A stretch of 64,000 nt of DNA, from NCBI RefSeq assembly GCF_000026545.1, contig NC_011601.1, one strand, 5' to 3'. Made by a program: the position numbers. Origin of the DNA: Escherichia coli O127:H6 str. E2348/69 (GTDB lineage: Bacteria; Pseudomonadota; Gammaproteobacteria; Enterobacterales; Enterobacteriaceae). Positions 22,501 to 25,500 of the stretch are shown piece after piece (within the stretch, counting starts at the first letter, position 1; each line of letters begins with the position of its first letter).

Positions 22501-25500
22501 GACCATAAAAATGATTATCATGTCCGGCGTAAATGCCGCCACTTTTTACCCCGCTGACTCGTGCGCACATAGCAGCCCAGCGATCCGGTTCGATAACGTG
22601 ATAGAGCCATAATCCTTGCCGTTGCTCCGGGCCAAAAGGTTCGCAAATTCGCATATGACGCAGAGGAACGCCTGCCTGATACATTATATTATACAGTGGG
22701 TTACAGAGCTGTTGATGGTTAGCATACCAGGTCCAGATATCAGCCACTCTCCAGTCGTAGATGGGGTAAATGTACCAGCTATGACCGCCTGGTGCGGCGG
22801 TGGTCCAGGGCTTATCATCGGCAAAACGTTGTTTATTTAAACTGGCGATGGCGACAAAACGGTTGTAGGACTCATCTGCACGGATGCCGATCATCATCGC
22901 CGCCGGACGCTTTTGCGAAAACCATTCGGCAAACTCACGCACAAATTGTTCGAAGGTCATACCAGGCTGGTAAAAGGAGAAAAAGTCAGGATCGGTTATC
23001 GCATCTTGCGGGGGCTGACGCACCCATTCGACATCAGGTTCCCAGCACTGCCATTCGGGTTGGTATTGAGAAAGGGAATTTTGCGTCGTAAGCGGGAGCG
23101 CAACCCAGTAAAACTCTTCGATGACATCGGCGTAAAACTCACGTAATGACTGAACATAGTTAATAGTGCATGAGAACTGCGCTTCCCAGTCGATAAACAA
23201 AACGCAGATTTTTTTGCCCATTTGTCGGGCAATTTCGGCTGTCAGATGCAGCATTAATCCGGAATCTTTACCACCCGAAAAAGAAACACAGATACGGGGT
23301 AGGGTATTAAGTGTCCAGGTAATACGTTCTTTTGCAGCTTCCAGAATATTCAGTGGAAGCGGGATTTTATAAATAGACATCTAAAAACGCTCTCTGAACG
23401 TTACGGGGTGATTCGTGAGATGAATCCGCTAATTATAGGATAAACGAAGCAAGATAGAGCACATTATTTTATATTCACACAATGAATTAATTGATGCGTA
23501 ATATATTATTTGTCAGTGGTAATGAATCAGAAGCTATCATTTAAACGATCTATGAATCGGGAGAAGACAAGGTTGTTCAACGAAGCCTTGTTATAGGAAA
23601 TATAAAGTTTAACCGCAGGAAGAGATTGTTCCAGTTTTATTTCTTTTAACTTCAAAAAGTCACGATGTAAATCGTACAGTTCGGTGGGCACAATGCCTAA
23701 TAAGTCAGTAACAGAAATACTATTAATTATAGTCATCAAAGAAGAACTGCGAAATGAAACTTTACGGTTCATAAAACGTTCATCTATGTCCATTTGAATT
23801 TCGTCAATCCCTGCTGATTTAGATATCAACAGGGTGAATTCTTCGGCGATAATTTGTTCATAGTTACTGGTATCAGTAATACGAGGATGTTTGTTGCTAC
23901 ATATAAGGGAATTGCGAATAGTGTGTAACGGCATGCAGATGACAGAGCGACTAATTACTGGTTGCAGCGTAATTGCCAGGTCAGTTTTGCGTTGAACCAA
24001 CAGTTCTTCGGCATTTTCAGCTGAAAGCAGGATGTCATGGCATTCTATATCGATTGAAGTATCTTGTCTAAGACAGCGGATTAGCATGTTGTTATTAGTA
24101 CAAGAAATAAGCTGAGGACCGTAGATAATAAAATTTTTCTTTAGTTCAGACTTATTAACGATATTGATCGTTTGTTCAAGGCCTCTGAGATTTTTCTCAA
24201 GATGGTGATGCAGGTTTAACCCTGTTGTAGTCGGCGCGATACCTTTCCCTGAGCGAATGAATAACGGGTCATTAAATTGCGCACGTAAACGTTGTAACGA
24301 CTGACTAACAGCAGAGGGCGTTATATATAATGATTCTGCCGCTTTACTAATGCTGAGATGTTGATAAATACATTCAAATATGACCAGTAAATTGAGGTCA
24401 AATTTTTTTAGATCATAAAGATTAGCCATAACATACTCCGCTGTATTGTCTCTTCCATAAATCATTCACTTGATCAATAATGTTGTTGTATTTATATGTA
24501 TTATGTTTTTCTGCTTAACTTTGGATTAAGATTTTCTAAAATAGCATAGCTGTCAGGTGGGTTACGAGCAATTCATGCGTTTTAAAGATGGTTGAAAAGC
24601 AGAGAGAGATTTCAACCATCGATGAATTATATTCTATTTATTCCCCATAATGATATTAAGTGTTTTCTGATCGGGTAATCCGACGGCTTGTTGCAGGGTA
24701 TTTTCCTTACTCATGTAATAGATAGCTGGTGTGACATTTGCCCCCAGATCGTCCATGAGTTTCTCGTTGTCGCTTAACACTTTCATTTGCTCTGTACTTA
24801 CGTTTGCAGGCACGCTTAGCTTAAGCTTGCCACCAGAGGCTTCATATTGTTGCCAGGTTTTTGCGGGATCTTTGGAGGCAAGAATTGCCGCTGCTGTCGC
24901 CGGGCTTTCTGGCTTGATAACCCCAACCAACAATGTTCTCAATTGCACTTTGCCAGAATCTACCCACGGACGAGCCTGCTGCCAGAACTGTTTACAATAT
25001 GGGCAGAACGGATCGGCGAAGACGTAGACAATGACCGGCGCGTCTTTTTTACCGTCGAGGAGCCAGTGGGATTGTTCCATCCGTTGCCACATTTCACGTC
25101 CGGCGGGTGCGTAAATTTCTTTTTCGATAAGTGTGTTACTCAGGTTTTCACCTTTTTCGTTGTACATGTAACCAGAGATAGCGTGCTTACCATCTGGAGT
25201 CAGGTAGATGGTGACGCCCATATCCTGATACTTACCGAGATAACCTTTCATTCCTCCAGGGGCATCGAACGTTTTGATGATTGTAATACCCTGTTTTTCA
25301 ATCGCTTTTACTGGGGCAGGAAGTTCCTCTGCGAAGGCGATTGCAGGAAGCAGGGCCAGTAAAAGTATCTTTTTTAACATTAATTTGTCCTTTTCAGTCA
25401 GTGCAAAAGTCGAGTAAAAGGCATAACCTATCACTGTCATAGGTAAGAGCTTAGATCAGGTGATTGCCCTTTGTTTATGAGGGTGTTGTAATCCATGTCG

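Follow-up and report, generated by a model that had tools for sequence, protein, structure and literature searches.

Does the conspicuous AT-richness of a bacterial regulatory gene mark it as a recent arrival, and does its position directly upstream of a co-directional gene pair make it the regulator of that pair? These questions are raised by ybdO, which encodes a LysR-type transcription factor in the chromosome of Escherichia coli O127:H6 str. E2348/69 and which we analysed within a stretch of 64,000 nucleotides of contig NC_011601.1 (assembly GCF_000026545.1), here called the window. A preliminary description, made from the sequence alone, had taken the low GC content of ybdO to suggest a horizontal origin and probable silencing by H-NS, and had proposed that ybdO may be the dedicated regulator of the downstream genes ybdN and ybdM. 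The coordinates that it gave for ybdO (23527-24429, minus strand), the gene order, the shared direction of ybdO-ybdN-ybdM and the 146-bp spacer (23381-23526) were all exact. What comparison with other genomes shows is that the AT-rich 1.6 kb that includes ybdO acts as an exchangeable cassette, with at least three deeply diverged allele types in Escherichia that depart from the species tree and recombine with one another.

An exchangeable allele cassette at ybdO

When the window is aligned with E. coli K-12, identity is 67-80% across the AT-rich tract (~23080-24780, about 1.6 kb) and 95-100% on both flanks. The hyperdivergent cassette delimited in this way (23081-24780, unstranded) runs from the 3′ end of dsbG, through the control region upstream of ybdO, the gene itself and the spacer, to about codon 100 of ybdN, and within it only a short island coding for the helix-turn-helix (HTH) is conserved between the two strains. 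The ybdO genes themselves share 79.8% of their nucleotides and 88.4% of their amino acids, at a proportion of synonymous differences (pS) of 0.70, which is saturated (synonymous divergence, dS, about 2), compared with 0.07-0.22 in the neighbouring genes. The ratio of nonsynonymous to synonymous divergence (dN/dS) is 0.034, residues 1-110 are identical, and all 35 amino acid differences fall in the effector-binding domain, while the promoter and spacer are only 70-74% identical. The divergence of ybdO is that of a gene under strong purifying selection that separated very long ago, and not of a gene in decay.

Both types are common. Among complete E. coli genomes, the 3′ module of the cassette is of the window type in 1773 and of the K-12 type in about 3560-3573, while the promoter module falls into three classes, of 1299, 561 and 3560 genomes, the third class of 561 genomes being missing from the 3′ module. 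In strain 550, a representative of this class, the sequence is K-12-like from ~24680 to 24486 and window-like from ~24485 downstream, and the breakpoint near 24485 thus places a crossover between the transcription start and the ATG. Chimeras that join the promoter of one type to the coding sequence of another occur in about 10% of E. coli genomes.

The allele types also cross lineage boundaries. The window type is found in a divergent lineage deposited as E. coli (L013; flank pS 0.35 to both E. coli strains), the K-12 type in Escherichia sp. MOD1-EC7003 (L006), and a third type in E. whittamii and strain E1V33. Inside one type, the divergence of ybdO is like that of its flanks (pS 0.435 in ybdO and 0.352 in the flank for the window and L013; 0.179 and 0.284 for K-12 and L006), and between types it is saturated whatever the distance of the flanks, a two-mode pattern that recurs in Citrobacter, Enterobacter and Klebsiella. 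In the quartet formed by the window, K-12, L013 and L006, the informative sites inside 23141-24780 group the window with L013 and K-12 with L006 by 161:7:8, and those in the flanks group the window with K-12 and L013 with L006 by 45:7:14, the switch between the two being sharp. We therefore hold with high confidence that the cassette has a discordant ancestry and has recombined. Since the Escherichia YbdO alleles share at least 73.6% amino acid identity among themselves and at most 63.8% with those of any other genus, the pool of alleles is restricted to the genus.

Could the same pattern have arisen in place? The hyperdivergent tract coincides with the AT-rich tract bound by H-NS, in every genus YbdO evolves faster than any other protein of its neighbourhood (the E. 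coli and Citrobacter proteins are 55-62% identical, compared with 82-87% for YbdN, YbdL and DsbG), and within-type pS ratios lie slightly above 1 in several pairs, all of which would suit the interpretation given in PMC4720273, namely that substitutions accumulate faster locally because of H-NS binding or low expression. A raised rate, however, predicts excess divergence in every pair together with an unchanged topology, and neither holds: ybdO diverges like its flanks between the window and L013, between K-12 and L006 and in several other species pairs, whereas saturation is reached in other pairs whose flanks diverge equally or less, and the topology flips at the boundaries of the tract (161:7 inside, 45:7 outside). 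Nor does an accelerated rate account for the promoter/coding chimeras, and the low dN/dS and the identical N-terminal residues are not what relaxed drift would leave behind. Recombination of old alleles thus explains the divergence of ybdO better than fast local mutation, and we regard accelerated evolution in situ as quite unlikely. The recombination check of Higashi et al. was a global one over E. coli strains, used no outgroups and did not single out ybdO (PMC4720273); theirs was the only paper to surface in a literature search combining ybdO with recombination or alleles, in which we found no description of allele exchange.

What has kept several old alleles in circulation is a further question. 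One tentative answer, to which we give somewhat less than an even chance, is that the ybdO cassette is a long-lived polymorphism shared across species, with at least three types older than the species that carry them, reshuffled by homologous recombination and kept by putative balancing or niche selection. Under such a polymorphism, crossovers would fall at the conserved edges and in the conserved promoter/HTH core, and some form of selection would act on effector specificity and on the level of expression.

Gene identity and the age of the low GC content

The gene at 23527-24429 encodes a LysR-type protein of 300 amino acids, an assignment that draws on its open reading frame (ORF), its RefSeq coding sequence (CDS) and its matches in Pfam and NCBIfam. 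The minus-strand ORF at this place runs over 23527-24465 (312 amino acids), the annotated CDS beginning at an internal ATG; the start at 24429 is favoured by a GGAG that precedes it by 6 nt in the window and in K-12 alike, and by the alternative ATG at 24465, which is out of frame in K-12. YbdO shows both marks of a LysR-type regulator, an N-terminal HTH_1 domain (PF00126, residues 12-70, E 7.6e-19, 67.9 bits with a cut-off of 26.6) and a C-terminal LysR_substrate domain (PF03466, residues 137-298, E 4.4e-10, 39.7 bits with a cut-off of 28). It also scores 455.4 bits against the NCBIfam CitR equivalog NF047710 (cut-off 400), covering residues 1-294 of the 295-position profile, and RefSeq gives the name citR to the same CDS of E2348/69, whose record matches the window at 100% over 21400-24800. 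The gene is therefore an already characterised E. coli LysR regulator, a known member of a known family. It is not divergent from the operon that it is proposed to regulate, since it lies upstream of ybdNM in the same direction. A divergent arrangement is common but not obligatory among LysR-type regulators, and its absence does not exclude membership.

The closest relative is K-12 CitR (YbdO, b0603): gene, locus and neighbours are all shared, and the difference is that the window carries a B2-type allele. This is the type that has been studied as SE15 (PMC4720273), and, judging by phylogroup, the K1 strain of a second study (PMC9141747) probably carries it as well. After CitR, YbdO is most similar to YbeF (168 bits) and then to LeuO (101 bits), both scores lying under the respective family cut-offs. 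YbeF is a LysR paralogue encoded beside lipA, near the cit operon, with a reported identity to YbdO of about 30%, and its gene too lies in an AT-rich island of the window (45434-46852); YbdO differs from it in falling below the YbeF cut-off of 277 bits and in being intact, whereas ybeF (~45843-46163, minus strand) is decayed in E2348/69, where it is annotated as a frameshifted, truncated pseudogene remnant. YbdO recalls LeuO in being of LysR type, in having an AT-rich, H-NS-repressed gene and in binding at AT-rich silenced promoters, among them the yjjP-yjjQ/bglJ intergenic region, which we take to be a LeuO target. This resemblance is functional and distant and not one of membership, the LeuO equivalog score being well below its cut-off of 262 bits, so that YbdO is not a LeuO orthologue; antagonism of H-NS is putative for YbdO.

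The AT-richness that drew attention to the gene was borne out by calculation. The GC content of ybdO is 37.2% (43.9, 32.2 and 35.5% at the three codon positions), compared with 51.8% for the window, 46.7% for ybdN, 46.8% for ybdM, 46.7% for dsbG and 54.8% for ybdL. Windows of 903 bp have a mean of 51.8% and a standard deviation of 5.0%, which puts ybdO ~2.9 standard deviations low, with 1.6% of such windows as low or lower. The intergenic DNA on both sides is lower still, at 33.6% in the spacer and 31.9% upstream. The lowest GC content in the window is not that of ybdO; it belongs to the pagP-dcuC intergenic region, at 34.0%.

To what extent is this AT-richness a trace of import? The order ahpC-(dsbG)-ybdO-ybdN-ybdM-ybdL is conserved in about 20 enterobacterial genera (Escherichia, Citrobacter, Enterobacter, Klebsiella, Raoultella, Kluyvera, Lelliottia, Leclercia, Trabulsiella, Yokenella, Pseudocitrobacter and others), ybdO lying between ahpC/dsbG and ybdL in each of 76 loci, including those of Salmonella enterica subsp. 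arizonae and diarizonae, and ybdN following in the same direction in 63. At every comparable locus the GC content of ybdO lies below that of its neighbours, by 9.5-19 points for ybdL (64 loci) and 4.7-13 points for ybdN (63 loci), while in absolute terms it ranges from 36% to 54% along with the GC content of the host. Because ybdO is poorer in GC than its neighbours at every locus and yet tracks its host, low GC is shown to be an old, maintained property of the gene and not the trace of a recent import. Horizontal origin in the sense of recent acquisition, as the preliminary description had suggested, is thus contradicted: the distribution is neither patchy nor non-syntenic, any original acquisition of ybdO predates the divergence of these genera, and the horizontal element at this locus is the exchange of alleles of a resident gene.

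Within E. coli, ybdO is present in at least 5355 of 5426 complete genomes, and outside the Enterobacteriaceae the only match was a 50% one in Photobacterium, limited to the HTH. In some strains the gene is disrupted by insertion sequences (IS). In E. coli ET120 (4714-6083) an IS5-like ISKpn26 truncates ybdO to a 108-nt remnant, and the DNA from ybdO to just past entF is missing, with ybdNM, ybdL, hcxA, cstA and ent genes; in strains 124 and CPEC80, citR is interrupted by IS1. Short contigs with a K-12-type dsbG-ybdO-ybdN arrangement and 97-99% protein identity were also found in metagenome bins labelled Lachnospiraceae and Bacteroides, where they are almost certainly contamination.

Silencing, autoregulation and the link to ybdNM

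The silencing of ybdO by H-NS, which the preliminary description had thought probable, is well documented. Higashi et al. (2016) used ybdO as a test case and found H-NS occupancy by chromatin affinity precipitation sequencing (ChAP-seq) upstream of and within the gene to be conserved in the strains K-12, SE11 and SE15; transcription rose in an hns mutant, and lacZ fusions in all three strains mapped an upstream and a downstream H-NS-dependent element (URE and DRE), together with strain-specific negative elements independent of H-NS (PMC4720273). In E. coli K1, Fan et al. (2022) demonstrated binding of H-NS to the ybdO promoter by electrophoretic mobility shift assay (EMSA), a 2.2-fold rise in an hns mutant and derepression at acid pH (PMC9141747). 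Early stationary phase and acid pH both lift the silencing.

Carried over to the window through its alignment with K-12, these elements lie in and around the dsbG-ybdO intergenic control region (24430-24633, minus strand), which holds the ybdO promoter. The transcription start, 107 nt upstream of the ATG in K-12 and 106 nt in SE11 and SE15 (PMC4720273), corresponds to 24531/24532 on the minus strand, and the putative -10 element, proposed from the sequence, is TATTTT at 24543-24538. The URE (-250 to -176; 24601-24675, minus strand), defined by deletion analysis, shares sequence with the stop codon of dsbG and with that gene's terminator hairpin (arms 24620-24610 and 24597-24587), and the DRE (+27 to +164; 24266-24403, minus strand) lies inside the ybdO CDS and adjoins, at 24191-24266 (minus strand), the negative element of the SE15 (B2) allele that acts independently of H-NS. 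Such paired upstream and downstream H-NS elements are also known from bgl and proU, a likeness drawn by the authors of PMC4720273; ybdO differs from these systems in that the DRE falls inside the regulator's own CDS and in its strain-specific H-NS-independent negative elements. A search with the H-NS motif TCGATAAATT, allowing up to 2 mismatches and taking the expectation from the window-wide density, gave 7 matches in the 1.55-kb tract where 1.8 were expected (~4-fold denser), an enrichment much of which AT-richness alone would give. The best match of the tract, TCGATGAATT at 24619-24628, falls within the URE, and two others (24269 and 24361) fall within the DRE. An island of ~100 nt in the HTH/linker-coding part of the gene (24181-24280), which overlaps the published downstream H-NS and negative elements, has no sites informative of allele type and is conserved in all Escherichia types, synonymous positions included; it may reflect constraint at the level of DNA or a site of crossover.

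CitR itself also binds here. In K-12, chromatin immunoprecipitation with exonuclease digestion (ChIP-exo) places a YbdO site at 636934-636965, with a signal-to-noise ratio of 97 (PMC8464067 supplement; the coordinates are those of NC_000913.2, and the 777-nt offset was verified with ybgD and gltA). Its equivalent in the window, carried over by alignment, is CTATGCTATTTTAGAAAATCTTAATCCAAAGT (24518-24549, minus strand), which lies 93-124 nt upstream of the ATG and covers the -10 element, the transcription start and the left arm of a palindrome. This local peak on the ybdO promoter is the strongest, and the other three of the four peaks are non-local, lying upstream of ybgD, upstream of ygiL and in the yjjP-yjjQ/bglJ intergenic region (PMC8464067). 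The palindrome, CTTAA-N7-TTAAG (of T-N11-A type; 24514-24530, minus strand), occupies ~+2 to +18 of the ybdO transcript; between the window and K-12 the arms are unchanged and the centre differs (CCAAAG and CCTGAG). Negative autoregulation of CitR has been claimed (PMC9068703), and this palindrome is a likely candidate for the autoregulatory operator. A search for a motif common to the four ChIP-exo peaks returned only a weak TTAA-N7-TTAA signal; this core is perfect at the ygiL peak, has 1 mismatch at ybgD and is not found at yjjP; in DNA as AT-rich as this (18-33% GC), matches of this kind are no rarity.

How far does regulation extend to ybdNM? Rodionova et al. (2022) renamed YbdO CitR and described it as a "repressor of ybdNM", having found that deletion of citR raises ybdN by log2 5.5 and ybdM by log2 2.5 (PMC9068703). 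A regulatory link of the kind that the preliminary description proposed is thus supported, ybdN expression responding to loss of ybdO, a response that the authors read as repression; the view that CitR is dedicated to ybdNM is not. The sole local ChIP-exo peak lies on the ybdO promoter and not on the spacer, and other targets have been reported: YbdO directly activates the kpsM promoter in E. coli K1 (PMC9141747), and a study of avian pathogenic E. coli (APEC) found it to repress oxidative-stress genes. Furthermore, 12 species, including Leclercia, Silvania, Raoultella terrigena and Klebsiella indica, keep an intact ybdO (298-304 amino acids) without ybdNM. Dedication is unsupported because of these species and the other reported targets. 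In 11 of the 12, ybdL comes next, 17-218 nt from ybdO, and across the family ybdNM has dropped out cleanly on at least several occasions.

From the stop of ybdO (23527) to the start of ybdN (23380), the 146-bp spacer (33.6% GC, minus strand) contains no minus-strand intrinsic terminator and no significant RNA structure (fold z-score -1.34). Because the Escherichia spacer lacks a terminator, read-through from ybdO into ybdNM is possible. AT-rich spacers separate the two genes in all 63 loci with ybdN (91-272 bp, median 153; GC 22-43%); their sequences are not alignable beyond the genus level, and terminator-like hairpins occur in only 8 of 65 spacers family-wide. A TATAAT at 23437-23432, lacking a recognisable -35, is kept in all three Escherichia allele types; a promoter consensus scan gave no enrichment over shuffles and called neither this TATAAT nor the mapped ybdO promoter. 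An FNR site at the ybdN promoter is reportedly predicted by EcoCyc. A second palindrome, ATTCA-N5-TGAAT (23487-23473), precedes the ATG of ybdN by 107 nt in every Escherichia type, and its position is conserved in Citrobacter and Salmonella. As a CitR operator it is doubtful, its half-sites being unlike those of the ChIP-exo palindrome, no ChIP-exo signal having been reported there and the same palindrome forming part of a terminator-like hairpin in Trabulsiella; it may be either an operator or a decayed terminator.

As others have shown, H-NS binds the AT-rich URE and DRE that flank the ybdO promoter and keeps the gene nearly silent. Taken together, these observations suggest a model in which CitR would repress its own promoter through CTTAA-N7-TTAAG. 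Transcription from this promoter, under the control of both proteins, would read through into ybdNM and could account for part or all of the effect of CitR on these genes, perhaps supplemented by a weak promoter in the spacer at the conserved TATAAT. CitR in addition occupies other AT-rich promoters silenced by H-NS, namely those of ybgD, ygiL and yjjP-yjjQ/bglJ. This joint reading of ybdO as the gene of an H-NS-silenced, self-binding CitR, with read-through into ybdNM, an old and maintained low GC content and a place in an exchangeable allele cassette, is in our judgement probable.

Several points weigh against it. Higashi et al. treat ybdO as a single cistron (PMC4720273), and no ChIP-exo peak has been reported in the 146-bp spacer (PMC8464067). 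The RNA-seq data come from an uncomplemented citR deletion that lies directly upstream of ybdN in the same direction, so that polar or read-through effects could mimic derepression. As an operator CTTAA-N7-TTAAG is statistically weak; over 74 loci it averages 1.85 mismatches, compared with 2.82 in shuffles. For the cassette, the comparison across lineages draws on four non-coli Escherichia genomes, one of them deposited as 'E. coli', the scan having recovered none of E. albertii, E. fergusonii, E. marmotae and E. ruysiae; between types pS has reached saturation, which leaves no basis for estimating the ages of the alleles, and introgression and long-retained polymorphism are not separable with these data.

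Two other explanations of the locus have to be set beside this model. The deletion mutants were made in BW25113, the paper makes no mention of complementation (PMC9068703), and removal of the CDS also takes out the downstream H-NS element, so that polar effects could contribute to the ybdNM response. It might then be supposed that this response is an artefact of the deletion, that the adjacency of ybdNM has no regulatory meaning and that YbdO is instead a LeuO-like antagonist of H-NS at distant AT-rich promoters, as would suit the three of four ChIP-exo peaks at other H-NS-type loci (yjjP-yjjQ/bglJ among them), the place of LeuO as third-best NCBIfam match, the activation of kpsM and the persistence of ybdO where ybdNM is lacking. 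We think this unlikely, since the strongest ChIP-exo peak is the local one, since ybdO, spacer and ybdN are adjacent and co-directional at 63 of the 75 loci that are informative, spread over about 20 genera, and since the exchanged cassette always joins the regulator to the promoter region and 5′ end of ybdN. Still further from the evidence, and in our view highly unlikely, is the idea that ybdO is a foreign gene of recent acquisition, kept silent by H-NS and dedicated to the regulation of ybdN-ybdM. The low GC content, the published silencing, the rise of ybdNM in the deletion mutant and the co-directional adjacency of the three genes in 63 loci are all compatible with it, and Higashi et al. 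class ybdO among horizontally transferred genes (PMC4720273); synteny across genera contradicts its recency, however, as does a GC content that tracks the host at 9.5-19 points below ybdL, and the 12 species with ybdO alone and the other reported targets speak against dedication.

Other features of the window and implications

Upstream of ybdO lies dsbG (24634-25380, minus strand; RefSeq). Downstream, ybdN (22160-23380, minus strand), the proposed regulated gene, was assigned from its ORF and from Pfam, which finds PAPS_reduct and DUF3440 domains and makes it PAPS-reductase-like (IbrA-like), and ybdM (21558-22187, minus strand) is ParB-N/IbrB-like from its ORF, a weak Pfam ParB_N match and the RefSeq name "IbrB-like domain-containing protein". 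Their reading frames overlap by 28 nt, and ybdL, on the plus strand, is convergent with the ybdM-ybdN-ybdO block. A PADLOC search with YbdN and YbdM found no match at system level and only partial ones (DndC at 21 bits and BrxP at 18 bits for YbdN, a type II methyltransferase at 16 bits for YbdM).

Elsewhere in the window, two AT-rich islands (40812-42483 and 36653-38252) comprise the pagP-dcuC intergenic region, already mentioned, and the divergent dpiB/citC control region at 37.4% GC; both look like further regulatory regions of H-NS type. Relative to K-12, the window lacks ybdR, a zinc-dependent alcohol dehydrogenase gene in K-12, between uspG and yldA (~28618-28893), where ~1.6 kb of K-12 sequence has no counterpart. 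It also differs by indels of ~75-85 nt in the cstA-ybdD (~18880-19000) and ahpC-ahpF (~26337) intergenic regions, K-12 being the longer, which could represent the presence or absence of repeat elements.

The existence of ybdO, its silencing by H-NS and its link to ybdNM were already known, from RefSeq, EcoCyc-derived names and several papers. New here, as a moderate addition, is the recognition of the AT-rich tract as an old allele cassette exchanged between Escherichia lineages. Since ybdO served as the worked example for the proposal that "H-NS facilitates sequence diversification" (PMC4720273), recombination of old alleles changes that reading, and if the cassette is indeed a long-lived polymorphism, the 'diversification' of H-NS-bound ybdO described in 2016 would be allele exchange and not faster mutation. 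The virulence phenotypes reported for ybdO are contradictory, the gene promoting virulence in K1 and attenuating it in APEC. Because strains differ in their alleles of effector domain, promoter and spacer, and about one genome in ten is a chimera, allele type is an obvious uncontrolled variable in such studies.

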